Notes: generated by a model not told the origin, from the sequence alone. 64,000 bases of DNA from Kordia sp. (GCF_050633145.1 NZ_JBOEFY010000037.1:7648-71647), one strand, 5' to 3'. Positions 25,439-42,506 are shown, counted from the first letter of the stretch. Numbers and translations are program-made.

Positions 25439-26314
25439 TTAGCGTATTTCTAGATTATTCTTTCGATGCGTTCGTAAAACAGCTTCCTCATTTTTCCAAT
25501 CAATCCATTTTTGCCCCTTTATTTTACGCATGAAATTGTCGTAATGTCTCATGATAAAAAAGTTATACACTGCTCTCCCTAAGTTTTTTGGATTCTTAGC
25601 AAATGAGCGCAAACTCATAGAGAAACCTGGTGTTATGTATTTCATGTAATGCCAATATCCTTCTGGCATATAAAGTATGTTCCCATGTTCTAACTCTGTA
25701 ATATGCCCTTGTGCTTTTTGCAAGGCTGGCCATTTTTCAAAGTCAGGATTTGAGAAGTCAATATCTTCACGAACAATCAGAGAATGTGGAATTTTGTAGA
25801 GGTAATCATTTTGTTTTTGATCGAACAGAATGCATTGTTTTTTTCCTTCAAAATGAAAGTGAAAAATATTAGCTAAGTCAATATCATAATGCATAAACGT
25901 ATGTGAGTTGGTTCCTCCAAAGAATAACATTGGTAAGGATTTCATCAACTTTAATCCAAAATCTGGATAGGTATAGTCATTTTGGAGCGAAGGAATTTCT
26001 TTTAGAATATTCCACAGAAAAATACGATATTTTGTAGGTTCTCGTTTGAGTAAATCTACATATTCCGACATTTTCATTTTTGCATGTGGTTCGTTGAAAC
26101 CATCTTTATAATCTACAGGTCTGTCATCATATAGTGGGACTTCTTTATCGCCCGCTATTTCTTTCATATACTCCAAACTCCATTTGGTATACGCAGGCCA
26201 ATCTTCAATAAAATTTTCTATCACCACAGGTTTCTGTGGCTTAAAGTAATTTTTAATAAAGTCTTCTTTGGTAATTGTTTTAACCCTTGGAATTTCTTGT
26301 AGATTCAATTTCAA
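25439..26314 (-). CDS. JmjC/cupin-8 Fe(II)/2OG oxygenase
   Basis: PQKPVVI..DWPA..KW, FFGG..THMHYD (HxD), LYMPEGYWH. Confidence 0.88.
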   Translation of the reverse strand: MKLNLQEIPRVKTITKEDFIKNYFKPQKPVVIENFIEDWPAYTKWSLEYMKEIAGDKEVPLYDDRPVDYKDGFNEPHAKMKMSEYVDLLKREPTKYRIFLWNILKEIPSLQNDYTYPDFGLKLMKSLPMLFFGGTNSHTFMHYDIDLANIFHFHFEGKKQCILFDQKQNDYLYKIPHSLIVREDIDFSNPDFEKWPALQKAQGHITELEHGNILYMPEGYWHYMKYITPGFSMSLRSFAKNPKNLGRAVYNFFIMRHYDNFMRKIKGQKWIDWKNEEAVLRTHRKNNLEIR

Positions 26315-26374
26315 AATTCTAACGTTTATTCTAGCTAAGTTAATAAATTGTTATGAAAAATATATTTTTTAAAC

Positions 26375-26404
26375 AAAAAAAGAGCTCAATTATGAGCTCT
26401 TTTT
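26375..26404 (-). terminator. Intrinsic terminator after bioB
   Basis: aaaaaagagctc-aattat-gagctctttt. Confidence 0.75.
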
Positions 26405-26427
26405 AGAATATATTTTGATACTCATTA

Positions 26428-27534
26428 CTATTTCTTTTCTAATGCGGCGGCTTTCTTGTTTTCTTTTGCCTGCTCGTTTCGTTCGATTGTATGCCCTGGT
26501 CTTGACCATTTTGGTTTTTCTCCTAGCGCTTGATACTGAGAATCTTCAGCTTCTACAGTTTGTGGTTGCACCTTCTTTGTAAATGGTTTTTGAGGATTTA
26601 ATCCTAACATTTCAAACATTTTCATGTCTTCATTTACATCTGGATTTGGTGTTGTTAGTAATTTATCTCCCGCAAAAATAGAGTTTGCGCCAGCAAAGAA
26701 ACACATTGCTTGTCCTTCTCTACTCATGTTGGTTCTTCCAGCAGATAAACGTACTTGTGTTTCTGGCATTACAATTCTTGTGGTAGCTACCATACGAATC
26801 ATATCCCAAATTTCTACAGGTTTTTCATTTTCTAACGGAGTTCCGTCAACAGCTACTAATGCATTGATTGGTACAGATTCTGGTTGCGGATTTAATGTTG
26901 CCAAAGCGGCTACCATTCCTGCACGATCTTCTACAGATTCTCCCATTCCTATAATTCCACCACTACAAACCGTTACATTGGTTTTACGAACATTATCAAT
27001 CGTTTCCAAACGATCTTCATATCCACGTGTTGAGATGACTTCTTTATAGTATTCTTCCGATGAGTCTAAGTTGTGATTGTAAGCGTACAACCCTGCTTCT
27101 GCTAAACGTTGTGCTTGGTTTTCTGTCACCATTCCTAGCGTACAGCAAACTTCCATATCTAGTTTATTAATGGTACGTACCATTTCTAATACTTGATCGA
27201 ATTCTGGTCCGTCTTTTACATTTCTCCATGCTGCTCCCATACATACTCGCGAGCTTCCCGAAGCTTTGGCACGTAATGCTTGTGCTTTTACATGCGAAAC
27301 GGTCATTAAATCATTTCCTTCAATATCGGTATGGTAACGTGCTGCTTGCGGACAATACCCACAATCTTCAGGACATCCTCCCGTTTTTATAGATAGTAAT
27401 GTAGACACTTGCACGGTATTTGGATCGTGATGAACTCTGTGTACCGTTGCTGCTTCATATAGCAATTCCATCATTGGTTTGTTGTAAATCGCTATGATTT
27501 CTTCTTTAGTCCAATTGTGTCGAATGTTGTTCAT
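26428..27534 (-). CDS. bioB: Biotin synthase
   Basis: SIKTGGCPEDCGYCPQ radical SAM motif, CMGAAWR, YNHNLD, PESVPIN, RLSAGR, AGANSIF. Confidence 0.97.
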   Translation of the reverse strand: MNNIRHNWTKEEIIAIYNKPMMELLYEAATVHRVHHDPNTVQVSTLLSIKTGGCPEDCGYCPQAARYHTDIEGNDLMTVSHVKAQALRAKASGSSRVCMGAAWRNVKDGPEFDQVLEMVRTINKLDMEVCCTLGMVTENQAQRLAEAGLYAYNHNLDSSEEYYKEVISTRGYEDRLETIDNVRKTNVTVCSGGIIGMGESVEDRAGMVAALATLNPQPESVPINALVAVDGTPLENEKPVEIWDMIRMVATTRIVMPETQVRLSAGRTNMSREGQAMCFFAGANSIFAGDKLLTTPNPDVNEDMKMFEMLGLNPQKPFTKKVQPQTVEAEDSQYQALGEKPKWSRPGHTIERNEQAKENKKAAALEKK

Positions 27535-27562
27535 AAAAAAGTAAGTTTGGTGACAAAAATAG

Positions 27563-28045
27563 TTATAACCATTTAGATTCTGCTTCTGTTGCGTCTAAAA
27601 TATCAATTTTTAATATTTCTGCTATTTGTTTTGCTATTTGAAATGCTTTTTCTTTCTTTTTTGCGGTGTATGCTTTGATGCGATGATTTCCATTGTAAAA
27701 TAAATTTACAATAATAACATTACTTCGTACTCTCGCTTCCGCAGAACGAGAACGTACCATGACCGATTCTGTCGTACTAAACACGGAAACATAGTCTATT
27801 TCTGGTAATTCTTTCCATTTTCCATATCGAATTCCAAATACTTCTGTGAAAGTTCGATACTTATTCGCTTCAAAATCAATTTCAGATCCATCTGTATAAA
27901 GATAAAAAAAAGATAACCCGCAAAGAATAAAACCATAGAGAAAGCCTGTAATAAGCAATACAATTCCGCAAGCAAGTGCAACCATTCCTAAAAGTGTTTT
28001 TATGATGAGTACATCTTCTTTAAAGACAATTTTTGTATCACTCAT
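27563..28045 (-). CDS. Hypothetical membrane protein (paralogue of 42560..43063)
   Basis: Two N-terminal TM helices; LPEIDYVSVF, VNLFY, IDILDATE..SKW shared with 42560; start moved to MSDTKIV. Confidence 0.7.
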   Translation of the reverse strand: MSDTKIVFKEDVLIIKTLLGMVALACGIVLLITGFLYGFILCGLSFFYLYTDGSEIDFEANKYRTFTEVFGIRYGKWKELPEIDYVSVFSTTESVMVRSRSAEARVRSNVIIVNLFYNGNHRIKAYTAKKKEKAFQIAKQIAEILKIDILDATEAESKWL

Positions 28046-29003
28046 TGATGAAATCTGTAAATAGTTTATAGAATTTATCTGCTTCTTCCAAGTATGGATT
28101 GTGCCCACTTTGCTCAAACATTACAAATTTGGCTTGTGGCATAAATTGCTTGTATTGCACTGCAAATTCTGGCGTAGAAACACCATCATAACGACCTGCA
28201 ACGATTAAGGTTTTTGCTTTTATATTTTTTAATTCTTTTCGATAATCTTGATAGATCATACTTCCAGAAACATCAAAATCGCCATCTTTTCCAATGATAG
28301 AAACATATACATCATTTGCCCAACCTCTATGTTTTTCTTTTGGCGAATTTTGCTTCAGTTTTGTGTTGTGATAGTATACATATTTGGTTGGAAAACTTCC
28401 GTAGACTTTCATAAATTCAGGATCGCTTGAAACATATCCTAACGCACGTAATGAATCTACTTTTTTCCATTTTTCAGGAAAGTGTGTTTTTGCATAACGA
28501 TTGTAACTATCGCAGTTTGCTTGCCACATAGCACCACTGTGAAAACCATTAATCAACACCATTTTGTCAACATTGTCTTTGTATTTGATGGCGTATGCTT
28601 GCGCAGGAACAGTTCCGTACGAATGTCCTACCAAAGAGATTTTTTTGAATTTTAAGAGTTTGCGAAGTTTTTCAATGAGTTCAACATCATTTTCCACTGA
28701 ATATTCAGATGGGTTTTTAGCATCATCGCTTTTACCTCTTCCCAAGAAATCGAAAAACACAACTGTATTGGTTTTGTAGTATTGTCCAAAATTCCCTTGC
28801 ATGTAATCGTGAGAGTTTCCTGGTCCGCCAGGTAAAAAGAAAATTGGATCTCCAGATCCTTTTACTTCTACATTAATTTTGTAACCATCAATGGTGTAGA
28901 ATTTTGATTCGAATTTATCAAAGATATCTGCTTCTTGTTGTGCAAAAGTTGAAGAAGTTGCACCAAATACAAACACTAGTAAAAGACGTGACAATAATTT
29001 CAT
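28038..29003 (-). CDS. Secreted proline-iminopeptidase-like alpha/beta hydrolase
   Basis: Signal peptide, PGGPG oxyanion motif, GHSYG nucleophile, GRYD, SGHNPY. Confidence 0.8.
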   Translation of the reverse strand: MKLLSRLLLVFVFGATSSTFAQQEADIFDKFESKFYTIDGYKINVEVKGSGDPIFFLPGGPGNSHDYMQGNFGQYYKTNTVVFFDFLGRGKSDDAKNPSEYSVENDVELIEKLRKLLKFKKISLVGHSYGTVPAQAYAIKYKDNVDKMVLINGFHSGAMWQANCDSYNRYAKTHFPEKWKKVDSLRALGYVSSDPEFMKVYGSFPTKYVYYHNTKLKQNSPKEKHRGWANDVYVSIIGKDGDFDVSGSMIYQDYRKELKNIKAKTLIVAGRYDGVSTPEFAVQYKQFMPQAKFVMFEQSGHNPYLEEADKFYKLFTDFINE

Positions 29004-29109
29004 AGCTAACAATTTATTGTAAATATAGCTATTTGACTAGAAAAGATGAATTACGTTACAAAGGAAAAGACATATATTAGACTATCCTTTTATTTTTTAT
29101 TGTAAAAAG

Positions 29110-29206: not shown

Positions 29207-29350
29207 TTAGAACGGAGAGCATGAAACAGCTCTGCTACAACTAGGTCTAAAAGTTCCTCTACCACCTTTTACTTGCTCTAATTCATTAATTTTAAAAACA
29301 GAGATTGCTTTTTTATTAAGGCTCAACGATTTAAGATTCTTTTTCTTCAT
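29207..29350 (-). CDS. Double-glycine-leader peptide P2 (47 aa), not in ORF track
   Basis: Manual translation MKKKNLKSLSLNKKAISVFKINELEQVKGG|RGTFRPSCSRAVSCSPF*. Confidence 0.8.
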   Translation of the reverse strand: MKKKNLKSLSLNKKAISVFKINELEQVKGGRGTFRPSCSRAVSCSPF

Positions 29351-29372
29351 TGTATTGATTGTTTAAATATAA

Positions 29373-29402
29373 CCTACTCTATTAAAGGTTTTCGGTTTTC
29401 CC
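29373..29402 (-). promoter_or_regulatory. Conserved 30-nt element upstream of P2 (shared with P4)
   Basis: 27/30 identical to 31874..31903; 22 nt from the start codon. Confidence 0.65.
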
Positions 29403-29476
29403 TTTTAAAATAAACATGCTAGCAATGCTTAAATTCTGACACTAATATCTATGATTTAGAAATTATAGAAAACAAT

Positions 29477-29503
29477 CATATCGCGAGATTAAATAAAATA
29501 GGG
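29477..29503 (-). promoter_or_regulatory. Conserved 27-nt distal element upstream of P2 (shared with P4)
   Basis: catatcgcgagattaaataaaataggg, 23/27 identical to 31979..32005 at nearly the same spacing. Confidence 0.6.
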
Positions 29504-29511
29504 TATAAAAA

Positions 29512-29535
29512 AAGTCTTGTGTAAAAACAAGACTT
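29512..29535 (-). terminator. Terminator of peptide P3
   Basis: aagtcttgt-gtaaaa-acaagactt with T-run on the minus strand. Confidence 0.7.
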
Positions 29536-29561
29536 AAAAAATGGATTTTTATACGTAATTA

Positions 29562-29714
29562 TTACTTAGAATGAGAAGGACAGCCATCTCGAAATGTGAT
29601 GTTATCAAAATCTGTTGGAAGACTCGATCCTCCTTTTATTTCGTTCGTTTTACTTAGGCTCACCTTAGCTATAGTAGTTTTTTTTAGACTAAATTTTAGT
29701 AATTGGTTTTTCAT
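29562..29714 (-). CDS. Double-glycine-leader peptide P3 (50 aa), not in ORF track
   Basis: Manual translation MKNQLLKFSLKKTTIAKVSLSKTNEIKGG|SSLPTDFDNITFRDGCPSHSK*. Confidence 0.72.
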   Translation of the reverse strand: MKNQLLKFSLKKTTIAKVSLSKTNEIKGGSSLPTDFDNITFRDGCPSHSK

Positions 29715-29817
29715 ATTTAAAAGAGTTTTTGTTTTCACTTACTAAATATAGATGCTCACCGAAAAATAGCGAAATCATTATACCCTATTTTCTTTAAAAT
29801 AGGGTCATTTTTAGCTT

Positions 29818-31434
29818 TTAGAAAATTTCTATTTTATTCAGTTCTTTTATGTAGTAAGATGGATTCAATCCTGTTTTGTTTTTAAAATGTTTTACGAAAG
29901 AATCGTCGGTTTTATATCCTATTTCAGTTGCAATACCTTTTATAGAAAATGATCTGAATTTCTTATCGTTTTTTAATCTTTTTAAAACATATTCAATTCG
30001 TAGCTCATTGATATAATCACTAAAAGTTTTTCCTTTTTCATTATTGATTATCTGTGACAAATAAGTAACATTCGTTTTTGTTTTTTTAGCGACAGAAGTC
30101 AAGTTACAATTCGATTTCAAAAAGTATTCCTGCACTTCCAGTTTGTGTAATCGCCCAATAATTGCTTTGAGAGTAGCATCATCAATTGGAATATTTTTGA
30201 TTTGTTTTTTTGATTTTTTTTGAAATGTTACTTTTTCGTCTTCTTCTAGTGTTGAAATTTTTTCTAGAAGTGTTTTAAATGTTGCTTGATTCGTTTGCTG
30301 CTTTTTAACGTATAAGATGAGCGTTAACAAAAATGCAGAAGTAGCTATTATAATTCCCCATAACATATAATTTATGGTTTGTTTATCTTCTTTTTCTTGA
30401 TTTTGCAATGCAACGATTTGGACTAAAAATTTTTCACTGTCTTTATCATGAAATTTATTCGTTGCGATATCTTTTTTGCGACTTGCCGTATTTTTAATTT
30501 CTATAACTTTATTCAACAAAATAGTAGCTTCCTTATAGTTTCCTTTTTTCGAATAACATTGTGCCAATAGATTGTGCGTGTTTATTACATTATCTTTTTC
30601 TAAATCTTCATCTTTTATATAAGCCATTGAATTCAATAAATACTGAATTGCTTCATCATATTTTTGAAGATCATAAAAGCAAAGCGCTATTGCATAATTT
30701 GTATTTACTGTTGGGAAGAAAGGACTTGCTATGTTGTTTTTTTTTATGATTGTTTCTGCTTTAAATAGACATTCAAATGCTAGTTCCCATTTTTTTTGAT
30801 GTCTATAAAATTTTCCTTTTTTTATGTATAAGTCAACAAGTCCCTCTTGAAAGTGTAGTTTTTTAGCTAGTGCAATTCCTTTTTTTATATGTGGAAACAT
30901 TGCTTCGTAATTCCCTTGCGCCATATAAGCATCACATATAGTTGTCAATACGCGCACATGGTTTTTTTTACCTTTAAAAGTAGCTTTGTCGATTAAGGTT
31001 AATGCATACACGGAAAAATCTACAGCCTTATCTTCTTTATTGATAGAAGGTAAAAAAGCTATTAGACCAGAATATGCAATTAATTCTTGATCTATGTTTT
31101 TATTCTTTTTTGCAATAGTCAAAGCATTGTAGTAAGCTTCTATAGCTTTTTCGTTTTTCCAACTGAAGTAATATGAATTCCCAAGTTTCATGTGGGCTTT
31201 AAACAGTAAGTCTTCATCTTTTATTTCTTCTGCTATCTCGATAGCTTTTACGAAATAGGATATACTGTTTACATAGTTTTCTTTTTTTTGCAATGCATTG
31301 CCTACATCTAGATATTGTTGTACCGTTTGCCCTTTAGTTTCTTTAATAGTATGCGCCTGCTGTGGGAATGAATAATGTCCTACTAAAAAGAAAATAATTC
31401 CTATGAGAATAACTGGTGCTTTTTGTGTATTCAT
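29818..31434 (-). CDS. Membrane-spanning one-component sensor: signal peptide-TPR-TM-AraC HTH
   Basis: Hydrophobic N-terminus, TPR helices, TM YMLWGIIIATSAFLLTLILYV, AraC LTSVAKKTKTNVTYLSQIIN..FSDYINELRI..IATEIGYK. Confidence 0.88.
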   Translation of the reverse strand: MNTQKAPVILIGIIFFLVGHYSFPQQAHTIKETKGQTVQQYLDVGNALQKKENYVNSISYFVKAIEIAEEIKDEDLLFKAHMKLGNSYYFSWKNEKAIEAYYNALTIAKKNKNIDQELIAYSGLIAFLPSINKEDKAVDFSVYALTLIDKATFKGKKNHVRVLTTICDAYMAQGNYEAMFPHIKKGIALAKKLHFQEGLVDLYIKKGKFYRHQKKWELAFECLFKAETIIKKNNIASPFFPTVNTNYAIALCFYDLQKYDEAIQYLLNSMAYIKDEDLEKDNVINTHNLLAQCYSKKGNYKEATILLNKVIEIKNTASRKKDIATNKFHDKDSEKFLVQIVALQNQEKEDKQTINYMLWGIIIATSAFLLTLILYVKKQQTNQATFKTLLEKISTLEEDEKVTFQKKSKKQIKNIPIDDATLKAIIGRLHKLEVQEYFLKSNCNLTSVAKKTKTNVTYLSQIINNEKGKTFSDYINELRIEYVLKRLKNDKKFRSFSIKGIATEIGYKTDDSFVKHFKNKTGLNPSYYIKELNKIEIF

Positions 31435-31610
31435 ATATTAAATGGAAAAAGAAAACTTCATATTTAGTACAAAGTAACTATATTAATTTTAGAACCATTA
31501 ATCGTATAGAATTTCGATTTGATTTTAGCAGCTCCTTGTTTCCTAAAAAATATACTTCAACAAAGCAAAAAATTTCTGGTATACACCATTCCATTCATTA
31601 TTTTTCACAT

Positions 31611-31646
31611 AAAAAAAGAGTTGAAGCAAACACTCCAACTCTTTTT
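31611..31646 (-). terminator. Terminator of peptide P4
   Basis: aaaagagttg...caactctttt with T-run on the minus strand. Confidence 0.7.
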
Positions 31647-31685
31647 CAACAGATAAAAGTCGTAACTCAATATCTGTTTATTTAA

Positions 31686-31850
31686 TTACCCACAAGCTAT
31701 TGCACCTGTTGCGCAAAAAATATCTGTTGGTGGCTCACCATTTCTACATTCAGTAACCGTATTAAATATACTTCCTCCTGTAATTTTATTAGCATGAAAA
31801 TTAGAGATTACTTCTTTGTTGATCTGTAACTTTTTTAATGACTTTTTCAT
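31686..31850 (-). CDS. Double-glycine-leader peptide P4 (54 aa), not in ORF track
   Basis: Manual translation MKKSLKKLQINKEVISNFHANKITGG|SIFNTVTECRNGEPPTDIFCATGAIACG*. Confidence 0.8.
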   Translation of the reverse strand: MKKSLKKLQINKEVISNFHANKITGGSIFNTVTECRNGEPPTDIFCATGAIACG

Positions 31851-32305: not shown

Positions 32306-32330
32306 AAAAAAATCCGCTCTAAGGCGGATT
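32306..32330 (-). terminator. Terminator after flotillin gene
   Basis: aatccgc-tctaag-gcggatt with T-run on the minus strand. Confidence 0.75.
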
Positions 32331-33808: not shown

Positions 33809-34391
33809 AATTTTTTTTGTTTATTGGTTGAACGATTAATATTCCGGTTCCTGTAATTTCCGTTACTTCTACTACAGTTCCTGTTTTGAGTGTTTCTTCA
33901 CTATCTGCAAGTGCATCCAATTCGCGCAAAGCGCCTTGAATATTGACATGAACTTTTCCAATTTTGGAACGATTGGCACCTATGGTTAAGTATACTTCTC
34001 CCACGTTTCCAATAGCGTTTTCAAGCTTGAGTGTTCCACTACTTACTAGTTTGTTAATGTAGTAAATAAGTGTTGCCATCACAACCATCATTGCGAGTCC
34101 AGCTAGTGATGATATTAAAATAGTCACACCTTTTCCGTAACCTGCATTGATAGATGAAATTCCTGCCCAACTAAATATGGTAAAGAAAGCCACTAAATTT
34201 TTGAACGTAAAGAATTGAAACCCAATTCCTGTATCGCTTTCTATATCGGAATCTACGTCGCCATCAGCGCCATCTGCATCACCTATTAAGAATGTAGTGA
34301 TAAGTACAAATACAAAAATCGTTGATGATATTGCAGCGATGACCCAATACGACTTTTCAAAAGTTGTTAATGCTGAAAACCAATCTTCCAT
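33774..34391 (-). CDS. NfeD-like partner of flotillin
   Basis: TM helices then OB-fold GNVGEVYLTIGA..GKVHV..ELDA; directly upstream of flotillin. Confidence 0.85.
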   Translation of the reverse strand: MEDWFSALTTFEKSYWVIAAISSTIFVFVLITTFLIGDADGADGDVDSDIESDTGIGFQFFTFKNLVAFFTIFSWAGISSINAGYGKGVTILISSLAGLAMMVVMATLIYYINKLVSSGTLKLENAIGNVGEVYLTIGANRSKIGKVHVNIQGALRELDALADSEETLKTGTVVEVTEITGTGILIVQPINKKNYDKSASLIAGS

Positions 34392-34434: not shown

Positions 34435-35601
34435 TTAGTCTTTGGTTAGCAATACTGAAACAGCGTTTCCTCCAAATCCGACCGCATTGACTAAAATTTT
34501 GTTTAGTTGTTTCGGTATTTTTCCTTTTCCAAGATACGGAATTGATATGAATTGTTGTTGCTGTATCATGAGAATTGCTAATTCTACACTTAACATTCCT
34601 GAAGCTCCAAAAGTGTGACCTATTTTCCACTTATTCGTAGTCAGACTTGGCATTTTGTTACAAAATATTTTTTTGATTGCTTGAAATTCTGCTAAATCAC
34701 CTTTAATTGTTCCTGGTGCATGTAGCACAATTGCATCTACTTCTTCGGTTGAATGTCCTTGTAATGCCATACGCATCGATTTTTCAAAACAGATACCTTC
34801 TGCCGAAATGGATGTGTTGTGTTTTAAAATTTCTGTAGCATAACCAATTCCTCTAATTTTTGCCAATGCATTTGGTTTTTCACCTTTTTCCATACAGATT
34901 GAAGCAGCTCCTTCACCCAAAATCATAGTGTTTCGGTTTTTTTCTAAGTCTAACGACAAACAAGGAAAATTTGCTTCTTTTTTTGCATATATATGCAAAG
35001 CTTGCATTTGCGCAATGGTAAATGGTGTTAGTGGCGCTTCACTTCCTCCTACCAAAAATTTCTCTGTCATTCCCGACTGCAGCCAAGCAATTCCGTTTAA
35101 CAACGCATGTAATGCTGTAGAACAAGTAATGGAATGTGATATTTGCGGTCCTGTAGTTTGCAAATCGTGTGCAACCCAAGACGAAATATTTCCTAAAGTA
35201 GTTGTTGGTGAACTTAGCGTTTCTGCATATTTATTTTCTAAGAAATCTTGATGATATTTTTCAAAAAGTGATGTAGCACCTCTAGACGAACCTATGTTTA
35301 TTCCGAAGTTGTTTTCATCATTCCAAGCAGCATTTTTAATAGCAATTCGTGAAGCTACTATTGCGTACAACACACTATTATCAAGGTTTTTATATTTTGA
35401 ATTGGAATTTTTTAATGCTTCAACCCCCGCTTTTGCCGTTGTGGAAAGTCGCGCTGTATTCACATATTCATTTTGAATTGTTTCAGTCTGAAAACAATGA
35501 AAATTAGTTGTATAATGTTCCCAAATTTCGGCTTGTGTACTTCCCAATGGAGATACCGAACCCAAGCCAGTTATTGAAATACAGTCATGCATCATAATCA
35601 T
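34435..35601 (-). CDS. Beta-ketoacyl synthase (FabF/FabB-like)
   Basis: GLGSVSPLG, SITCSTALHA (Cys), VLHAPGT and KIGHTFGASG (His-His), NAVGFGGNA. Confidence 0.85.
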   Translation of the reverse strand: MIMMHDCISITGLGSVSPLGSTQAEIWEHYTTNFHCFQTETIQNEYVNTARLSTTAKAGVEALKNSNSKYKNLDNSVLYAIVASRIAIKNAAWNDENNFGINIGSSRGATSLFEKYHQDFLENKYAETLSSPTTTLGNISSWVAHDLQTTGPQISHSITCSTALHALLNGIAWLQSGMTEKFLVGGSEAPLTPFTIAQMQALHIYAKKEANFPCLSLDLEKNRNTMILGEGAASICMEKGEKPNALAKIRGIGYATEILKHNTSISAEGICFEKSMRMALQGHSTEEVDAIVLHAPGTIKGDLAEFQAIKKIFCNKMPSLTTNKWKIGHTFGASGMLSVELAILMIQQQQFISIPYLGKGKIPKQLNKILVNAVGFGGNAVSVLLTKD

Positions 35602-35749: not shown

Positions 35750-37450
35750 ATGAATATTTCTAAAATTTCTTTGTTACTTATTTTACTTCCTTTTTGGGTT
35801 TTGGCTAATAATCAAGATTCCCTTTCTATTTTTAAAGAGAAAAACCTTTCGCAGCAACATACATATATTAAGGAACGATTAAATTCCGTAAAAAATATAG
35901 ATACTTATATTACTGCTTTTTCAGATAAAGCAAGAGGACAAAAAGACACACTTTATATTGCCAAATCGTATTATTTTAAATATCGCACCTACAGAAAAGC
36001 AAAAGCATATTCAGAAGCACATTCGGCAATTGACAAAGCCATTTTACTTGCAAAGAGCAGCAAGAAAGATTCATTATTAGGTTCTTTTTTTCATGCCAAA
36101 GGCGCTACTTTTTATATGCAGTCTAATTTTAAGGCTGCATTGGATTACTATTTAAAAGCGTATGACATTATGCGTACTAAAAGCTCAATTAGTAAATTAT
36201 TGACACTAAAATTTAATATTGCAGTAATGAAACTAAGAGTAGGAAAAACGCAAGAAGCATCTCTTCAATTTTATAAGATTATCCACTCGTACGATTCGCT
36301 ACTCAGTACAAAACCCAATTCATATGCTTTGAAAAAAAATTTTATTATAATGCTCAATAATACAGCGAAAGCCCGTACTGACTTAGCTATGTACGAGCAC
36401 GCAATTGAGTTGTATTCAAGAAGTCTTTTATTGAACGAAACTATTAATTATCTTCCTGCGAAGTGTATTGCTATTGGCGGGAAAGGAAATGTATATACCG
36501 CAGAAAAAAAATATGAGAAAGCTATTGAAAAACTAAACGAAGCATTAGCAATTTCAACTAAAGACAAAGAATCAGACTTAGTTACTCCTTATTTATTACT
36601 CGATAAAGGAAAATGCCTATTTGGATTAAAAAAATATAAAGAAGCCTTAGAAAATTTCGTAGAAATAGATCGTATCATACAAACTAAAAAACTGAATTTC
36701 CCAAACTTAGACGAAGCATATCAATTTCTTGGAAAAACGTATGTTCAATTGGGAAATCATGAAAAAGCGACGGAGGTCTATGACCAGTATATTAAACGAA
36801 AAAAGCTAAATGATGAAAAACGCTTTGAGTTGTATCAAACTATTTTTGAAGGATATGATTTGAAGAATGTAGAATATCGTGCCGAGAAAGCTGCAAAAGA
36901 GTCCAATTTATTTAAAAGCTACTTTACACAAGCAATTCTAGCAATTATACTTTTAATTATTTCTGCAATTGCCTTCTTTATGTATTATAGAAATAAGCAA
37001 AAACAAAAGTTTACAAAGTTTCATGCACTTATTAAAGAGTTAAAAACGACAGAGGTCAAGGATGTAGAAACCGTTCCTACTGGTTATGTATTATCGGACG
37101 AAAAAGCTTCTAAAATATTGAACAACTTGGAAGTTTTGGAAACGAAGTTATTTTTTCTTGATAAGAAATACAACCTTTCCACCTTGGCAAAAAAGTGTAA
37201 TACTAATTCGAGTTATTTATCTCAAGTGATTAATAAATATAAAGAGAAGACTTTTTCAGAATATATGACTGATATGCGTATTACTTATGTTTTAAATGCG
37301 TTAAAAAATGATAAAAAATTACGCTCGTACACCATTCAATCTATTGCAGAAGAAATTGGTTTTAAGAAATCAGAATCGTTTGCAAAGGCTTTTAAAAAAC
37401 GAACAGGATTTAATCCTTCTTATTATATTAAAAATCTTGACAAGCTTTAG
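35750..37450 (+). CDS. Membrane-spanning one-component sensor: signal peptide-TPR-TM-AraC HTH
   Basis: MNISKISLLLILLPFWVLA signal, TPR repeats, TM AILAIILLIISAIAFFMYY, AraC LSTLAKKCNTNSSYLSQVIN..IAEEIGFK. Confidence 0.88.
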   Translation: MNISKISLLLILLPFWVLANNQDSLSIFKEKNLSQQHTYIKERLNSVKNIDTYITAFSDKARGQKDTLYIAKSYYFKYRTYRKAKAYSEAHSAIDKAILLAKSSKKDSLLGSFFHAKGATFYMQSNFKAALDYYLKAYDIMRTKSSISKLLTLKFNIAVMKLRVGKTQEASLQFYKIIHSYDSLLSTKPNSYALKKNFIIMLNNTAKARTDLAMYEHAIELYSRSLLLNETINYLPAKCIAIGGKGNVYTAEKKYEKAIEKLNEALAISTKDKESDLVTPYLLLDKGKCLFGLKKYKEALENFVEIDRIIQTKKLNFPNLDEAYQFLGKTYVQLGNHEKATEVYDQYIKRKKLNDEKRFELYQTIFEGYDLKNVEYRAEKAAKESNLFKSYFTQAILAIILLIISAIAFFMYYRNKQKQKFTKFHALIKELKTTEVKDVETVPTGYVLSDEKASKILNNLEVLETKLFFLDKKYNLSTLAKKCNTNSSYLSQVINKYKEKTFSEYMTDMRITYVLNALKNDKKLRSYTIQSIAEEIGFKKSESFAKAFKKRTGFNPSYYIKNLDKL

Positions 37451-37459
37451 TTTATTAAT

Positions 37460-37477
37460 CTATTTTCATAAAAATCG
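37460..37477. promoter_or_regulatory. 18-bp palindromic box copy 1 (CGATTTTYATRAAAATCG)
   Basis: ctattttcataaaaatcg, 17/18 match, 70 nt before P5 start. Confidence 0.65.
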
Positions 37478-37547
37478 ATTATAAACACTGGGATTCGGTT
37501 TTAGAATTAACGTACTTTCTACTATCATTAATCTTAAAACTAATAGT

Positions 37548-37739
37548 ATGAAAAGTAGATTTCACAAAAAATTAAACCTTAAAAAAGTTACCATTTCTAA
37601 ATACATTATTCTTGGCGGTTCAGCAACTCCTGATAGTGAATCGGTTCCTACACAATCTAGCGCATATCTTGAACCAACAGAATTACCTGTACTGGATGAG
37701 AATTTGACAATTAGTGGCCATCAACAAACGTGCATGTAA
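37548..37739 (+). CDS. Double-glycine-leader peptide P5 (63 aa, acidic core)
   Basis: MKSRFHKKLNLKKVTISKYIILGG|...SSAYLEPTE...TCM. Confidence 0.8.
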   Translation: MKSRFHKKLNLKKVTISKYIILGGSATPDSESVPTQSSAYLEPTELPVLDENLTISGHQQTCM

Positions 37740-37767
37740 ACACATATATCTTGGTTAAAATCTAGTA

Positions 37768-37785
37768 CGATTTTTATAAAAATCG
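37768..37785. promoter_or_regulatory. 18-bp palindromic box copy 2
   Basis: cgatttttataaaaatcg, 18/18 match, 73 nt before P6 start. Confidence 0.7.
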
Positions 37786-37858
37786 ATTATAAGTATTGGG
37801 AATGTTTAGAGAAATTGAGTTTCTTCACATTATAATAATTAACTCTAAAACTTGTATT

Positions 37859-38041
37859 ATGAAAACTAAGTTTCACAAAAAATTATCCCTCAAAAAAATT
37901 ACAATCTCAACATATAAAATCTATGGAGGTAATGAAGAAGATACCATTAAATCTAGCGCATATCTAGAGCCAACAGAAACTCCAACTCCAATAGATGAAA
38001 GTCCTAGATTGATTAGTGCTAATAATGAAACCTGTGTTTAA
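37859..38041 (+). CDS. Double-glycine-leader peptide P6 (60 aa, paralogue of P5)
   Basis: MKTKFHKKLSLKKITISTYKIYGG|...SSAYLEPTE...TCV; start moved from 37796. Confidence 0.8.
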   Translation: MKTKFHKKLSLKKITISTYKIYGGNEEDTIKSSAYLEPTETPTPIDESPRLISANNETCV

Positions 38042-38060
38042 TACGCTTCGTTAAAAAAAT

Positions 38061-38094
38061 AAAAGCTCTTGAGTTATTCTCAAGAGCTTTTTTT
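38061..38094. terminator. Bidirectional terminator between convergent peptides
   Basis: aaaagctcttgag-ttatt-ctcaagagctttt. Confidence 0.85.
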
Positions 38095-38098
38095 GTTG

Positions 38099-38293
38099 TT
38101 ATACACACGGATGTACTGACAAGCAAGGGTTTGGAATATCTGTATTTCCAGTAAAAGAATTTTCACAAAGTCTGTGTTCTTTAGTTGGCTCAACTGGACA
38201 TAAAATCACTGAGATAATTCCTCCTTTTGCACTTTCTAAATTAGAGATCAATTTCTTGTTTAATTTTAAACTTTTTAAACTTCTTTTCTTCAT
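38099..38293 (-). CDS. Double-glycine-leader peptide P7 (64 aa, 4-Cys core)
   Basis: MKKRSLKSLKLNKKLISNLESAKGG|IISVILCPVEPTKEHRLCENSFTGNTDIPNPCLSVHPCV; start moved from 38365. Confidence 0.8.
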   Translation of the reverse strand: MKKRSLKSLKLNKKLISNLESAKGGIISVILCPVEPTKEHRLCENSFTGNTDIPNPCLSVHPCV

Positions 38294-38368
38294 AATGAAT
38301 ATAATTTTAAGGTTTATGATTTGACTCAAAACTAGATCACATTTTGTGCTAAAACAAAGCAACATTTA

Positions 38369-38408
38369 CGATTTTCATGAAAATCTAATACGTTTTTCAT
38401 AAAAATAG
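38369..38408. promoter_or_regulatory. 18-bp palindromic box copies 3 and 4
   Basis: cgattttcatgaaaatct (38369..38386, 17/18) and cgtttttcataaaaatag (38391..38408, 16/18); first copy 75 nt before P7 start. Confidence 0.65.
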
Positions 38409-38487: not shown

Positions 38488-39054
38488 TTACTGAAAGTTT
38501 GTGAGTTGCTTACGAAGATTTTTTCGAACATTTTGCAGGTTAATTCTATTAAAATACATGTCTACATCTTGCATTCCGTCCATTGCAAGTTGAATCCATT
38601 CTACTTTTACTTCTCCTTCACTGAGTAGATATTCTTCAATGATGATTTCTTTTTGTATTCCGATGATTAAAAGTATTGCTGCAATGACAATTCCCGTGCG
38701 ATCTTTTCCAGATAAACAATGTACAAGTACTGGAAATTGTATACCTGGATTCTCAAAAGTTTTTATGATTTGATTGAGCCAAATTTTCACTTCTTTTTGA
38801 CTTGTATTGTATTTTTCAATTTTGTTAGACATGGGAAAGTGAAAATATTCCACATCAAAAGCAGCTTCATCTGCTCCATTTCTCAGGTTTATGATAGATT
38901 TTGCTTGTCCGATTTCATCGAGTGTTTTTACATAATCAATACTTCCGCCTCTTAAAAGTTGGTTTTCGTGTAGTTTTTTTTCGCCAAGTATTAGGTTTAT
39001 ATATCCGCCAACATCTCTAAAATTTACGCAACCATCTGTATAATCTAATCCCAT
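38488..39054 (-). CDS. Protein tyrosine/serine phosphatase (Y_phosphatase3-like)
   Basis: NFRDVGG, INLR, HCLSGKDRTG (CX5R loop). Confidence 0.88.
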   Translation of the reverse strand: MGLDYTDGCVNFRDVGGYINLILGEKKLHENQLLRGGSIDYVKTLDEIGQAKSIINLRNGADEAAFDVEYFHFPMSNKIEKYNTSQKEVKIWLNQIIKTFENPGIQFPVLVHCLSGKDRTGIVIAAILLIIGIQKEIIIEEYLLSEGEVKVEWIQLAMDGMQDVDMYFNRINLQNVRKNLRKQLTNFQ

Positions 39055-39077: not shown

Positions 39078-40343
39078 CTATAGTGTATCAAGCGTTTCGC
39101 GAATGGCCTGATATATTTGTTGCAATTGCACATCTGTAGTAATGTACGGCGCTAAAATGTAAATGGTATTTCCTAACGGGCGCAAACAAACACCTTTGCT
39201 CATAAACGAATTGAACAGTTTGTCACGTAAGTTTCCATAACGTTCCATTTCTATGTTTAGATCGAGTGCAAAAATTTGTCCTTGTTGTCGTGTAGACACC
39301 ACTTTTGGATGTTTTTTTATTTCTTGACCAAATGTATTGTGTGAAGCTTCAATGCGTTTTAAATTCGCCTGCATTTCGTTTGATTGCAGGAGTTCAATTC
39401 CCGCAATAGCGGCACTACACGCCACAGGATTTCCCGAATAGGTATGTCCGTGGAAGAAGCCTTTTTTCATATCATCTGCATAAAAAGCATCGTATATTTT
39501 TTGACTACAACTCGTAATTGCCATTGGCACCATTCCCGCAGATAACGCTTTGGATAAACAGATAATGTCTGGCTTGGTTTCTATAAATTCTGATGCAAAG
39601 TTTTTTCCCGTTTTTCCAAAACCAGTCATAATTTCGTCGGCAATGGTAACAACGTTGTGCTCTTGTGCAATTTTTAAGATCTCGTTGATATGCTCTGCTT
39701 TATGCATTTGCATTGCGGCAGCACCTTGCACCAAAGGTTCGTACACAAAAGCAGCTACTTTATGTTCTGTAATTAATTTGGTGAATAATGCTTTTACTGT
39801 TTCCAAATTTTCAGCATTTGGTACAGGAATTCGAGCTACATCAATAAAGAATTCTTCAAACGGTCCGTTATAGACTGAAAGTCCAGAAACTGACATTGCG
39901 CCAAAGGTATCGCCATGAAAACCATTTTCTAAAGCAATAATTCGTCCTCTTTTTTCATCTTGATTGAAATGATATTGCAGTGCCATTTTTATAGCTACAT
40001 CAATAGCAGTAGAACCATTGTCTGAAAAGAATAGCTTTTCTTGATTGCTAGGTAATATTTCAATGAGTTTTTCTGAAAGTTCTACAGCTGGTTTGTGCGT
40101 GAATCCTGTGAAAACCACATGATCTAGACTTTGCATTTGCGCATATACTTTGTCGATAATGTATGGATTGCAATGTCCGTATACACAAGTATACCAAGAC
40201 GCTATTCCGTCTATATATTCATTGCCGTTTTCATCATATAAAACAGCGTCTTTTGCCTTAGTAATCGCAATATGATTTGGATGCGATTTGTGCTGCGTTA
40301 GTGGATGCCAAAGGTGTTTTTTATCTCTTTCTTGTAAGCTCAT
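39078..40343 (-). CDS. bioA: Adenosylmethionine-8-amino-7-oxononanoate aminotransferase
   Basis: LWHPLTQH, SDNGST, FHGDTFGAMSVS, EPLVQGA, IADEIMTGFG, LSKAL, FHGHTYSGNP. Confidence 0.96.
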   Translation of the reverse strand: MSLQERDKKHLWHPLTQHKSHPNHIAITKAKDAVLYDENGNEYIDGIASWYTCVYGHCNPYIIDKVYAQMQSLDHVVFTGFTHKPAVELSEKLIEILPSNQEKLFFSDNGSTAIDVAIKMALQYHFNQDEKRGRIIALENGFHGDTFGAMSVSGLSVYNGPFEEFFIDVARIPVPNAENLETVKALFTKLITEHKVAAFVYEPLVQGAAAMQMHKAEHINEILKIAQEHNVVTIADEIMTGFGKTGKNFASEFIETKPDIICLSKALSAGMVPMAITSCSQKIYDAFYADDMKKGFFHGHTYSGNPVACSAAIAGIELLQSNEMQANLKRIEASHNTFGQEIKKHPKVVSTRQQGQIFALDLNIEMERYGNLRDKLFNSFMSKGVCLRPLGNTIYILAPYITTDVQLQQIYQAIRETLDTL

Positions 40344-40954
40344 TATAGTTTTTCTTTGAATGTTTCCGCGTACTCGCGAATTACATTTTGATCAAAATAC
40401 GGCTCTTCATCAATACGTCCAAGTACAGGAACATTGGTCATTTTTTTGATGATTGTTTCTGTTGTTACGTGTTCCTTCCCACTAAAAATAATAGACACAT
40501 TGAAGCCTTTTTCTTTTAGCAAATTTACCGTTAGTAAGGTATGATTGATACTTCCCAAATAATGACGCGAAACTACCACAACATGATATTCAGGTTTTAT
40601 GACATCTAAAATTGTGTTTTCGTCATTCAACGGCACTAAAATTCCGCCTGCACCTTCAATAACCAAATGATTATCGGTCATTGGTTCTTTAATTTTTGCT
40701 AAATCGATCGTGATATTGTCAATTTCTGCGGAAGCGTGCGGACTCATTGGCGTATTGAGTGCATAACTATTTGGGTGAATTTTTGTTTTTGTGTTTGAAA
40801 TGTATCTTTCTATTTTGTGACTGTCGGAATTGTCTAAATCACCAGCTTGTATTGGTTTCCAATAATCGGCTTGTAAGGCTTCCACTATAATTGCGGAAGC
40901 AACAGTTTTTCCAACTTCAGTTGAGATTCCTGTGATAAATATTTTCTTTTTCAT
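40343..40954 (-). CDS. bioD: Dethiobiotin synthase
   Basis: FITGISTEVGKT, YWKPIQAG, VIEGAGG, LGSINHTLLT. Confidence 0.96.
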   Translation of the reverse strand: MKKKIFITGISTEVGKTVASAIIVEALQADYWKPIQAGDLDNSDSHKIERYISNTKTKIHPNSYALNTPMSPHASAEIDNITIDLAKIKEPMTDNHLVIEGAGGILVPLNDENTILDVIKPEYHVVVVSRHYLGSINHTLLTVNLLKEKGFNVSIIFSGKEHVTTETIIKKMTNVPVLGRIDEEPYFDQNVIREYAETFKEKL

Positions 40955-41343
40955 TGACCTTTTTCGGGTTTAAAAGTTTCTCCGCACATATTACACAAAT
41001 ATATTTTTGGCTCAAAAAACGGGAATAACATGTATAGAAATTTTTTTTTCGGTGGCGCAATTAGCACTTTGTTTTCCTTACAATTAGGACACACGATTCT
41101 ATTTCGCTTTCTGTCTACTTCGTATTCGCGCAATTCATTGTATAACGCAATGGCAGCTTCTTTGTCTTGCAAATGTACTTCTAGTTTTACACCACCAATT
41201 GCATTGCTCACCAACGGATCTACATCAACGGTATATTGATCTCTTAGAAATACTTCGATGCCTTCCGACATGAATTTTCCTTGCATTACGCGCGCTTCTG
41301 CCGTGTATTCAAAAGTAGTTACTGTATAGAACTCGTTTTTCAT
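40951..41343 (-). CDS. DUF2007-like protein with C-terminal Zn ribbon
   Basis: SEGIEVFL.D, SNAIGGVKL, CPNC...CNMC. Confidence 0.75.
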   Translation of the reverse strand: MKNEFYTVTTFEYTAEARVMQGKFMSEGIEVFLRDQYTVDVDPLVSNAIGGVKLEVHLQDKEAAIALYNELREYEVDRKRNRIVCPNCKENKVLIAPPKKKFLYMLFPFFEPKIYLCNMCGETFKPEKGQ

Positions 41344-42506
41344 TTTTGTAGTGTTTGTAAAGTGTTTATAACTGCTTTTATTTCTGTTTCTGTATTGTAT
41401 GAATGTAGACAGAAACGCAAGCGTTCTTTTCCTTTCGGAACTGTTGGTGATACTATTGGTTTTACGTCAAACCCTTTTTCTTGTACTATTTTTGCTGTGC
41501 TTTTTACTATATCATTTCCTGAAAGAATACAACAGTGAATCGCTGCATTTCCTGGAATGAAGTTCAAATTTCTTGTCGCTTCTTGAAAGCTTTGTATGTT
41601 TTTGTGTAACCGTTTTATAGCTGTTGTTTGCGAGAGTTCATCATACGCTATTTTGATCGTAGCTACTGCATGTGGCGATAATCCTGTGGTATAGACGAGA
41701 CTTCTAGCAAAATTGACTAAGTAATTTTTGAGCGTTTCACTTCCCAAAATAACGGCTCCGTGACAACCAAGGGCTTTTCCAAACGTGTAAATTCTGGCAA
41801 AGACTTCATTTTCTAGGTTTAGTTCCTGTAAAAGTCCTTTTCCATATTCGCCAAAAACACCTAAAGCATGTGCTTCATCTACAATGAGATAAACATCTTG
41901 CTCATTGCAAAGTTTCACTAACGCTTTTAAATCAGGTGAATCACCATCCATAGAAAAAACAGATTCTGTCACCACATAAATTTCTTGATCTGTTGTATTT
42001 GATTGTTTTATTTTTTGAATTTTCTGTTGTAAATCAGACAACTCGTTATGCTTGAATTTGTATGATTTTGCATTACTCATTCCAATTCCATCACGAATTG
42101 AAGCATGAATAAATTCATCATACATTATAATATCTCCACGCTGCGGCACAGATGAAAAGAAACCAATATTGGCATCATATCCTGAGTTGAATAACAAAGC
42201 AGCTTCACTGTTGTGAAATGTACAAAGTTGTGCTTCTACTTCTTGATATAGTTTGTGATTTCCCGAAAGCAATCGCGAACCTGTAGCGCCATTTTGTTGT
42301 ATGTTTCTATCTAGTAAAAACTGATGTGTTTTTTTAAAAATGGTTTCAGAAGTAGCAAATCCCAAATAATCATTCGAAGAAAAATCAACATTCCCTTTGG
42401 TTATAGGAAGCGTTCGCAGTGCATTATTTTGCACACGACCTTGAAGTTTTGCTTGTATTTTTTTGGGTGTTTTCACGTGTTTATATGTATTCTTTTTATT
42501 GATCAC
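41340..42506 (-). CDS. bioF: 8-amino-7-oxononanoate synthase
   Basis: DFSSNDYLG, GATGSRLLSGN, FNSGYDAN, HASIRDG, ESVFSMDGD, VDEAHA, TFGKALG. Confidence 0.95.
   Translation of the reverse strand: MINKKNTYKHVKTPKKIQAKLQGRVQNNALRTLPITKGNVDFSSNDYLGFATSETIFKKTHQFLLDRNIQQNGATGSRLLSGNHKLYQEVEAQLCTFHNSEAALLFNSGYDANIGFFSSVPQRGDIIMYDEFIHASIRDGIGMSNAKSYKFKHNELSDLQQKIQKIKQSNTTDQEIYVVTESVFSMDGDSPDLKALVKLCNEQDVYLIVDEAHALGVFGEYGKGLLQELNLENEVFARIYTFGKALGCHGAVILGSETLKNYLVNFARSLVYTTGLSPHAVATIKIAYDELSQTTAIKRLHKNIQSFQEATRNLNFIPGNAAIHCCILSGNDIVKSTAKIVQEKGFDVKPIVSPTVPKGKERLRFCLHSYNTETEIKAVINTLQTLQK

Follow-up and report, generated by a model that had tools for sequence, protein, structure and literature searches.

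Within the biotin pathway only the pimelate arm varies, and it has sprung surprises more than once; four routes through it are understood biochemically, and a fifth, that of Desulfovibrio, is known from genetics alone. Desulfovibrio vulgaris possesses an extended biotin cluster (DVU2558-DVU2565, including the FabF-like DVU2563), which has been proposed to make pimeloyl-ACP without a methyl ester and is genetically required when biotin is not supplied (PMC545781, PMC10102598). In alpha-proteobacteria BioZ, a KAS III (FabH-like) enzyme, joins an omega-carboxylated C5 primer to malonyl-ACP and leaves the completion of the chain to FAS II, with lysine catabolism as the supplier of glutaryl-CoA (PMC7645780, PMC8024396, PMC12625853). 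The BioE-BioL system of Weeksellaceae solves the same problem within the order Flavobacteriales, from a slot beside bioF and in genomes without BioC/H, by means of BioE, a diiron oxygenase of the ferritin-like kind, which cuts long acyl chains and has no homology to the enzyme described below (PMC12704756, PMC12915131). A genomic survey of marine bacteria found bioFADB in most Flavobacteriia (PMC9561691).

Here we analyse a 64,000-nucleotide stretch of a Kordia sp. genome (NZ_JBOEFY010000037.1:7648-71647; hereafter the window) that encodes a FabF-like ketosynthase (KAS), and we suggest that this KAS probably makes biotin's seven-carbon precursor in Kordia. It resembles the Desulfovibrio case in that a FabF-type (KAS I/II) gene lies inside a biotin cluster of genomes devoid of bioC and bioH; the two are likened by gene context. 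In Desulfovibrio, however, an ACP, a FabG-like reductase, FabZ-like dehydratases and a nitroreductase-like protein are also set aside for the task, whereas the KAS is the sole dedicated component here: neither the window nor the KAS neighbourhoods examined showed a dedicated ACP, FabG-like or FabZ-like gene. All reports of the Desulfovibrio cluster, moreover, concern anaerobes (Desulfobacterota, Chrysiogenetes), while the KAS hosts are Bacteroidota, mainly Flavobacteriales, which are largely aerobic. With BioZ our KAS shares the principle of a single recruited condensing enzyme encoded in the bio cluster where other pimelate genes are missing, but BioZ belongs to another ketosynthase family with a Cys-His-Asn site and an acyl-CoA primer, unlike the Cys-His-His KAS I/II enzyme of flavobacteria, and where two serines hold the carboxylate in BioZ, the KAS has an invariant Arg at the back-gate position. 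Our literature search found no published description of this KAS in Flavobacteria or Bacteroidota. The original prediction of an uncharacterised flavobacterial route was a fair one, although the FabF-like gene of the bioC/bioH-less Desulfovibrio cluster is a genetic precedent for it (PMC10102598, PMC545781).

The biotin locus of Kordia and its ketosynthase

All four bio genes named in the original prediction (bioF, bioD, bioA and bioB) are present, each with a match to its family, and together with the KAS and JmjC genes they are intact and lie on one strand (Table 1). The bioF match is below the strict TIGR00858 cut-off of 426 bits; translation of the gene is coupled to that of bioD and bioA, and its product is 78% identical to BioF of Kordia algicida. 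A small gene between bioF and bioD, orf130, overlaps its neighbours by 4 nt at either end (bioF stop, bioD start) and occupies this position in 28 of 80 loci. The small membrane proteins heading the bioF and bioB units, smp1 and smp2, are paralogues (33% identity), and smp1 is a possible member of the biotin system. Neither orf130 nor this pair had been mentioned in the original prediction. No operator motif common to the bio units was obvious by eye in the short intergenic regions. A scan for sigma-70 promoters gave 66 sites against 77 expected.

Table 1. Genes and transcription signals of the biotin region in the window
Feature	Position	Strand	Evidence or remark
smp1, small membrane protein	42560-43063	minus	directly upstream of bioF, heads bioF unit
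bioF, 8-amino-7-oxononanoate synthase	41340-42506	minus	TIGR00858 best NCBIfam match, 332 bits
orf130 (130 aa)	40951-41343	minus	DUF2007-like N-terminal domain, then CxxC...hydrophobic hairpin...CxxC (zinc ribbon)
bioD, dethiobiotin synthase	40343-40954	minus	TIGR00347, 118.7 bits (cut-off 83.3)
bioA, KAPA aminotransferase	39078-40343	minus	TIGR00508, 542.7 bits (cut-off 405)
KAS, FabF-like, 388 aa	34435-35601	minus	PF00109 and PF02801
NfeD-like gene	33774-34391	minus	downstream of KAS, conserved neighbour
flotillin gene	32351-33808	minus	downstream of KAS, conserved neighbour
terminator-like hairpin	32311-32330	-	end of NfeD-flotillin pair
alpha/beta hydrolase, proline-iminopeptidase family	28038-29012	minus	TIGR01250, 141 bits; lineage-specific insertion
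smp2, small membrane protein	27563-28045	minus	directly upstream of bioB, heads bioB unit
bioB, biotin synthase	26428-27534	minus	TIGR00433, 403.3 bits (cut-off 225)
intrinsic terminator	26404-26377	minus	between bioB and JmjC gene; 12-bp stem, then T run
JMJD5-like JmjC/Cupin_8 oxygenase	25439-26314	minus	Cupin_8, E 6e-31

The co-oriented KAS was found between bioA and bioB, as predicted, though 3.5 kb from bioA, the gap being filled by a tyrosine-phosphatase gene and an opposite-strand TPR-AraC gene. On the other side the NfeD-flotillin pair, a second TPR-AraC module and the alpha/beta hydrolase stand between it and bioB. The KAS gene appears to be co-transcribed with NfeD-flotillin, and this, like the inserted genes that part it from bioA and bioB, counts against its role in biotin synthesis.

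By its domains (PF00109, E 7e-20; PF02801, E 4.5e-16) the protein belongs to the KAS I/II (FabF/FabB) type, and alignment to solved FabF structures gives the predicted intact Cys-His-His site, the decarboxylating machinery, as Cys160, His294 and His329, along with Lys324 and the gate Phe376. At least 97% of 77 locus orthologues keep these five residues, as do 145-149 of 150 cluster representatives, in which an alignment gap accounts for each exception. While both domains, the Cys-His-His site, the catalytic Lys and the gate Phe are common to FabF/FabB and the KAS, the latter is about 25-30% identical to them, has two deletions and a polar distal pocket, and is not FabF proper, scoring 144.6 bits with the FabF equivalog TIGR03150 (cut-off 493.75); a separate housekeeping FabF is kept in the genome (C20:7937-9193).

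In FabF the residues I108 and F202 form a back gate at about C7-C8 of the bound chain (PMC9006962). The KAS does not have this hydrophobic gate, as Ile108 is replaced by Arg107 and Phe202 by Met199, and Arg107 is found in at least 97% of the locus orthologues and in 148 of 148 informative cluster representatives. Gly201 is further changed to Gln198 and Leu111 to Thr110, 4 residues are deleted, and Thr-Thr 134-135 is near-invariant (144 of 150 representatives). Since the invariant Arg/Met and a polar pocket take the place of the hydrophobic gate, the remodelled, cationic pocket appears to suit an omega-carboxylated acyl chain.

Putative mechanism of pimeloyl-chain synthesis

We consider it likely that the KAS is the dedicated condensing enzyme for the pimeloyl chain across most biotin-making Flavobacteriales, Kordia included, and we infer for it a glutaryl-primer mechanism, whose substrate is read from one alignment position and by analogy. 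The enzyme would supply the pimeloyl chain for BioF in place of BioC/BioH(G), BioE, BioI/W or BioZ. An omega-carboxylated primer, likeliest glutaryl (C5) from glutaryl-CoA or glutaryl-ACP, would be loaded on Cys160 and its free carboxylate would pair with Arg107; condensation of the glutaryl thioester with malonyl-ACP would yield 3-oxopimeloyl-ACP, which the housekeeping FabG, FabZ and FabI may then turn into pimeloyl-ACP with neither a methyl ester nor an esterase. Overall a KAS I/II scaffold would here follow the logic of BioZ, and work on BioZ shows that FAS II accepts 3-oxopimeloyl-ACP whose carboxylate is free (PMC7645780).

The Kordia genome encodes a glutaryl-CoA dehydrogenase (GCDH; E 3e-127 to solved GCDHs), which was singled out by comparison with solved structures, as NCBIfam could not do it; glutaryl-CoA is therefore a resident metabolite. 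GCDH is present in 48 of the 52 KAS-bearing genomes. Against the glutaryl version stand the genomes of family f11, in which KAS is present and GCDH absent, and the preference of KAS I/II enzymes, whose primers are normally acyl-ACP, while no source of glutaryl-ACP was found.

The same observations fit another chemistry for the same role, in which the KAS would elongate malonyl-ACP twice with a free omega-carboxylate, from malonyl through 3-oxoglutaryl and glutaryl to 3-oxopimeloyl, with the help of housekeeping reductases and dehydratase. This is a Desulfovibrio-type scheme of which only the condensing enzyme would be dedicated here, and D. vulgaris, which has no bioC/bioH, needs the FabF-like DVU2563 for biotin-free growth (PMC10102598, PMC545781). 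In favour of two rounds, a glutaryl-activating gene was linked to KAS in no locus examined. The absence of linked genes of the kind that Desulfovibrio dedicates (ACP, FabG-like, FabZ-like) speaks against them, so housekeeping FabG/Z/I would need to accept C5 dicarboxylate intermediates, and the Arg, lying where the gate meets C7-C8, suits a C5 carboxylate better than a C3 one. We regard the double elongation as a possible but rather unlikely variant.

Phyletic pattern and other candidates

The glutaryl-primed reading and its two-round variant both suppose that the KAS belongs to biotin synthesis, and this link is strongly supported by gene linkage, co-occurrence with BioF, exclusion of BioE and BioC/BioG and the cationic pocket. 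KAS follows bioA in 71 of the 80 Flavobacteriaceae bioF loci (58-85% identity), and in other families it adjoins bioB or lies between bioD and bioB. Outside Flavobacteriales it adjoins bioA in one genome of another order, and a genome from a different class has a bioB..bioFDA..KAS arrangement. A conserved partner of the KAS (ACP, reductase or CoA ligase) was sought in the neighbourhoods examined and none was found. With an orthologue threshold of E <= 1e-65, which leaves a clear gap to FabF, KAS was found in 52 of 151 Flavobacteriales genomes, and 51 of these 52 have BioF; among about 82 genomes without BioF it occurs in one, an 86%-complete assembly, and this near-confinement to BioF-bearing genomes sets it apart from FabF/FabB. 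The original prediction had proposed to compare co-occurrence of KAS and JmjC with the bio genes and with bioC/H, and for the KAS the comparison bears it out, KAS never being met together with BioC/BioG. The most distant members of the KAS family come, by their source names, from Bacteroidota MAGs.

In families f3, f16, f9 and f15 BioF and KAS are present or absent together with one exception, G117 (f15, 72% complete), where BioF is present and KAS was undetected. KAS was not found in families f8 (14 genomes), f12 (7) and f7 (14). BioE occurs, among the 151 genomes, only in genus g12 of family f7 (7 of 7), and BioG with BioC beside a divergent BioF only in family f10 (7 genomes) and in G063, and KAS is present in none of them; BioE and KAS co-occur in 0 of the 151. 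The one complete genome with BioF and without KAS, G051, was rejected as a counter-example, because it has no BioA and its bioF is thus an orphan.

These data also bear on the suggestion that the KAS is a syntenic passenger with, for instance, a specialised lipid or polyketide role, pimelate being obtained through an unrecognised enzyme or from the environment. Its position in the window with NfeD-flotillin, which are membrane microdomain genes, and not directly with bio genes would agree with it, as would family f5, where KAS is next to no bio gene. However, a passenger should not be so rare in BioF-less genomes and so regularly missing from the three families named above, nor have bio-gene neighbours that vary from family to family and are found even outside the order, nor exclude BioE and BioC/G, and we find this explanation improbable.

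Even less probable is that a known route is hidden in Kordia, whether as a divergent BioC with some alpha/beta hydrolase, as a P450 acting as BioI or as a FabH paralogue acting as BioZ. The prediction that no bioC, bioH, bioW, bioI or bioE is recognisable in the window agrees with our search of the whole 6.26 Mb assembly (100% complete), where BioG and BioW were not found, BioI was not recognisable, neither BioC nor BioH exceeded its cut-off, and a profile built from six BioE sequences, recovered from Weeksellaceae loci as a reference, had zero matches; the bioC/bioH elsewhere in the genome that could have helped to overturn the prediction was thus looked for and none was over cut-off. The best BioC-like methyltransferase (80.9 bits against a cut-off of 184.95, in a non-bio context) overlaps the gene of a 394-aa P450 on contig C38. 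True BioC genes of the same order score 127-205 bits and adjoin BioG and BioF, whereas the C38 pair lies behind an RHS-repeat ORF of >2200 aa and its P450, the one of the pair that was searched for, is present in 1 of 18 other Kordia genomes; because of this context and rarity both candidates were rejected. The genome also has 15 weak BioH-like hydrolases, and an alpha/beta hydrolase gene is located just upstream of smp2-bioB (28038-29012); as a BioH the latter was discarded, being a proline-iminopeptidase relative in a genome without BioC, matched by the BioH model over its last 68 residues only (44 bits, cut-off 207) and having one homologue, of 25% identity, in the 80 related loci. The ORFs upstream of bioF were likewise rejected as BioE, as they encode small membrane proteins without ExxH motifs. 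All three FabH paralogues are off the bio contig, although a BioZ-like activity of one is conceivable in principle and would speak against the KAS role.

The original prediction held that the KAS and/or the JmjC Fe/2OG oxygenase form the route to pimeloyl-ACP; the KAS part is upheld by the evidence above and the JmjC part is not. Its gene does follow bioB, as had been noted, and does so in 26 of 80 loci, the metal-binding HxD...H site is intact, and pimelate can be made by oxidative cleavage (BioI, BioE), but an intrinsic terminator parts it from bioB, in several Flavobacteriaceae genomes it is unlinked to bio genes, and its closest solved relatives (human JMJD5, TYW5 and FIH) hydroxylate proteins or tRNA. 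Its family ignores BioF and KAS, being present in f7 (14 of 14) and f12 (7 of 7), which are mostly or wholly without BioF, and in 12 of 14 f16 genomes regardless of BioF, and absent from f9, f15, f5 and f13, all with KAS and BioF. A role of the oxygenase in pimelate synthesis, alone or with the KAS, for example by oxidative chain cleavage, is largely refuted by this distribution and is the least credible of the explanations considered; we judge the gene, which is neither co-transcribed nor co-occurring with bio genes, to lie outside the biotin system.

Meaning for biotin synthesis in Flavobacteriales

If the KAS indeed condenses the pimeloyl chain, it would represent a fifth route, single-gene and methyl-ester-free, and the dominant start of biotin synthesis in marine Flavobacteriales. 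It may tentatively be suggested that one FabF-derived, arginine-gated KAS is the sole addition that these bacteria make to fatty-acid synthesis in order to obtain pimeloyl-ACP with a free omega-carboxylate. In the boldest form, with both rounds starting from malonyl-ACP carried out by the KAS, the BioC/BioH "disguise" would be dispensable once the condensing step is adapted. It would also be a natural case of a hydrophobic ketosynthase pocket re-tuned for a dicarboxylate.

Flavobacteriales are major marine and freshwater heterotrophs, and their biotin pathway is currently annotated without a start, which affects how auxotrophy for vitamins and cross-feeding are predicted. If true, a solution with a single gene and no esterase would fill this gap and provide a compact part for engineered biotin production.

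Distribution of the bio-linked ketosynthase

The FabF-like ketosynthase (KAS) encoded in the biotin region of Kordia is probably the pimeloyl-chain enzyme of biotin synthesis. The original prediction offered it and/or the JmjC protein as an uncharacterised flavobacterial route to pimeloyl-ACP; its KAS half is supported by linkage to the bio genes, co-occurrence with BioF and an arginine-bearing pocket, and its JmjC half is not supported. A KAS orthologue (58-85% identity) follows bioA in 71 of 80 bioF loci of named Flavobacteriaceae (Kordia, Aquimarina, Tenacibaculum, Flavobacterium, Polaribacter, Arenibacter and others), and in other families it lies beside bioB or between bioD and bioB, standing alone in one family. 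Among 301 genomes sampled from the phylum, one of another order has it directly after bioA, and one of another class has the order bioB..bioF-bioD-bioA..KAS. Sources annotate the family only generically ('beta-ketoacyl synthase N-terminal-like domain-containing protein').

We surveyed 18 families of Flavobacteriales, sampled evenly to a total of 151 genomes, calling KAS orthologues at E <= 1e-65, with FabF and FabB beyond 1e-50; since the sampled genomes are kin to one another, counts are given instead of a test statistic. When KAS is set against BioF and the other pimelate routes, as was originally proposed, it occurs in 52 genomes, 51 of them with a true BioF (the remaining assembly is 86% complete), and never with BioE, which is confined to one genus (7 of 7 genomes), or with BioG plus BioC, found beside a divergent BioF only in another lineage (seven genomes plus one). 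KAS, BioE and BioC/BioG are thus mutually exclusive within one order. BioF and KAS are present in 2/14 genomes of family f3, 3/14 of f16, 11/14 of f9 and 12-13/14 of f15, essentially the same genomes for both (the sole mismatch is G117, in f15), and therefore the pair was gained or lost jointly several times. Three genomes have BioF without any of the three routes: G051, also without BioA, G117 (72% complete) and G058 (83% complete, no BioA seen either).

Gene order and neighbours

The source is a Kordia species with a 6.26 Mb genome, 100% complete by marker genes, whose BioF shares 78% identity with the K. algicida OT-1 protein. Gene calls confirm the order first described, with KAS between bioA and bioB and JmjC after bioB.

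Genes of the biotin region (window coordinates)
Feature	Position	Strand
smp1, small membrane protein	42560-43063	minus
bioF	41340-42506	minus
orf130, 130 aa; 4-nt overlap each with bioF and bioD	40951-41343	minus
bioD	40343-40954	minus
bioA	39078-40343	minus
tyrosine-phosphatase-family gene	38488-39054	minus
TPR-AraC gene, between phosphatase gene and KAS	35750-37450	plus
KAS	34435-35601	minus
NfeD-like gene	33774-34391	minus
flotillin	32351-33808	minus
second TPR-AraC module	29818-31434	minus
alpha/beta hydrolase, proline-iminopeptidase family	28038-29012	minus
smp2, smp1 paralogue	27563-28045	minus
bioB	26428-27534	minus
JmjC/Cupin_8 gene	25439-26314	minus

KAS adjoins neither bioA nor bioB directly, because lineage-specific genes are inserted on both sides; the order in K. 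algicida is tighter (bioF-orf130-bioD-bioA-KAS-NfeD-flotillin-smp2-bioB-JmjC). Two modules of TPR-AraC regulators and small peptide-like ORFs (35750-38408 and 29207-31850) interrupt a bio operon that is contiguous in relatives, the one between bioA and KAS being common to K. aestuariivivens (68% identity). The NfeD-like and flotillin genes 3' of KAS, which end at a terminator-like hairpin (32311-32330), lie between KAS and bioB in several genera (12-13 loci), an odd conserved passenger of a vitamin operon.

Heading the bioF and bioB units respectively, smp1 and smp2 are 33% identical and share two N-terminal TM helices and a C-terminal domain ending ..LDAT..SKW. This family matches no Pfam family. 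Of 85 Flavobacteriaceae loci, six have a member immediately 5' of bioF and three more have one no further than 2 kb away; its Atlas model resembles Ycf4 (TM 0.62), which may serve as a lead only. The orf130 gene is translationally coupled between bioF and bioD and occupies this slot in 28 of 80 loci. Its product combines a DUF2007-like N-terminal domain, a CxxC, a hydrophobic hairpin and another CxxC, all four cysteines invariant, and may have a regulatory or metal-binding role as an accessory to the pathway.

The JmjC gene product is a Cupin_8 protein that resembles JMJD5, TYW5 and FIH and retains the HxD...H motif. We rejected it as a partner in pimelate supply: a terminator (12-bp stem and T run) separates it from bioB, its family is present in f7 (14/14), f12 (7/7, without BioF) and f16 (12/14, only three with BioF), and within the survey it is absent from f9, f15, f5 and f13, all having BioF and KAS. 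Inside Flavobacteriaceae it is often unlinked to bio genes, following bioB in 26 of 80 loci, and this position is synteny, not shared function.

The active-site pocket and the possible reaction

KAS carries both KAS I/II domains and scores far below all curated FabF and FabB models; the single FabF of the Kordia genome is only distantly related to it (E 7e-22). Apart from gaps, every cluster representative keeps Cys160, His294, His329, Lys324 and Phe376, as do at least 97% of the locus orthologues. In alignment to solved FabF structures the FabF motif G-S-G-I-G-G, whose Ile we take to be Ile108 of E. coli FabF, reads G-S-S-R-G-A in KAS. All 148 informative representatives of 50%-identity clusters have this Arg, as do at least 97% of the 77 orthologues from the loci and the distant members belonging to other families, to another order and to another class. 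Phe202, the partner of Ile108, is replaced by Met, Gly201 by an invariant Gln and Leu111 by Thr, and the loop equivalent to the FabF Phe133' loop, which the other subunit contributes, lacks four residues and carries a near-invariant Thr-Thr. In elongating ketosynthases, I108 and F202 make up the 'back gate', at about C7-C8 of the bound acyl chain, and glutaryl-ACP methyl ester reaches about this depth (PMC9006962, review). Given these similar depths, the alignment suggests that a C5 dicarboxylic acyl group bound to the active-site Cys would have its carboxylate in a favourable position for pairing with the Arg side chain pointing back.

KAS may accordingly resemble BioZ in condensing a glutaryl thioester with malonyl-ACP to 3-oxopimeloyl-ACP, which FabG, FabZ and FabI would then reduce; that FAS II accepts free-carboxylate 3-oxopimeloyl-ACP was shown by BioZ (PMC7645780). 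Glutaryl-CoA would be available in Kordia, because the genome encodes glutaryl-CoA dehydrogenase (GCDH; G000:C12:15637-16833, E 3e-127 to solved GCDHs). Orthologues of GCDH occur in 48 of 52 KAS genomes and 0/9 of the BioC/BioG lineage f10, a weakly informative pattern, since BioC/BioG amounts to little more than a single lineage and KAS occurs without GCDH in family f11. The enzyme is unusually conserved, being found in 119/151 Flavobacteriales, streamlined 1-2 Mb genomes included, mostly at 70-90% identity (four matches at 61-69%).

Alternatively, KAS might elongate malonyl-ACP twice with no methyl ester involved, a scheme put forward for Desulfovibrio vulgaris, where the FabF-like DVU2563 of an extended bio cluster is required for biotin-free growth (PMC10102598; predicted in PMC545781). 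KAS would be a recruited ketosynthase, as in BioZ and that cluster; the Desulfovibrio cluster also has its own ACP, reductase and dehydratases, whereas none are linked to the flavobacterial KAS, and we consider the glutaryl-primed condensation the likelier of the two. A full-text literature search, covering a minority of subscription journals, found no paper describing a KAS I/II enzyme for biotin synthesis in flavobacteria or Bacteroidota.

Other pimelate routes and BioF divergence

The absence of known pimelate genes, originally noted for the window, extends to the whole Kordia genome in profile and cut-off searches: the top BioC match reaches 80.9 bits against a cut-off of 184.95, no BioH exceeds its cut-off, no BioG or BioW was found, and a profile of six sister-family BioE sequences has no match. 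Three FabH paralogues are encoded, none on the bio contig. The top BioC-like gene, on another contig, overlaps a P450 gene behind an RHS-repeat ORF. In this locus (G000:C38:9887-20000; L001, L095), a gene for a >2200-aa RHS-repeat protein precedes mutually overlapping genes for a 394-aa P450 and a 246-aa SAM-methyltransferase, an arrangement suggestive of an accessory locus for a polymorphic toxin or for tailoring; its P450, searched for by itself, was recovered from just one of 18 other Kordia genomes.

Recent papers show that BioE, a ferritin-like diiron oxygenase, initiates biotin synthesis in Weeksellaceae, and they report it from Flavobacteriaceae too (PMC12704756, PMC12915131); our profile found none in 14 Flavobacteriaceae genomes. 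It was recovered in six genomes of the sister family f7, as an ORF of 207-217 aa that carries the ligand pattern described in those papers and lies directly upstream of bioF, opposite a ~500-aa ORF that matches, by position alone, the MocR-type regulator bioL. These loci (L089-L094) have the Weeksellaceae-type order, the divergent ~500-aa ORF and then bioE-bioF-bioD-bioB-bioA. Since BioF of f7 is ~40% and that of the BioC/BioG lineage 33% identical to the Kordia protein, sequence comparison suggests that BioF has diverged together with its pimeloyl supplier.
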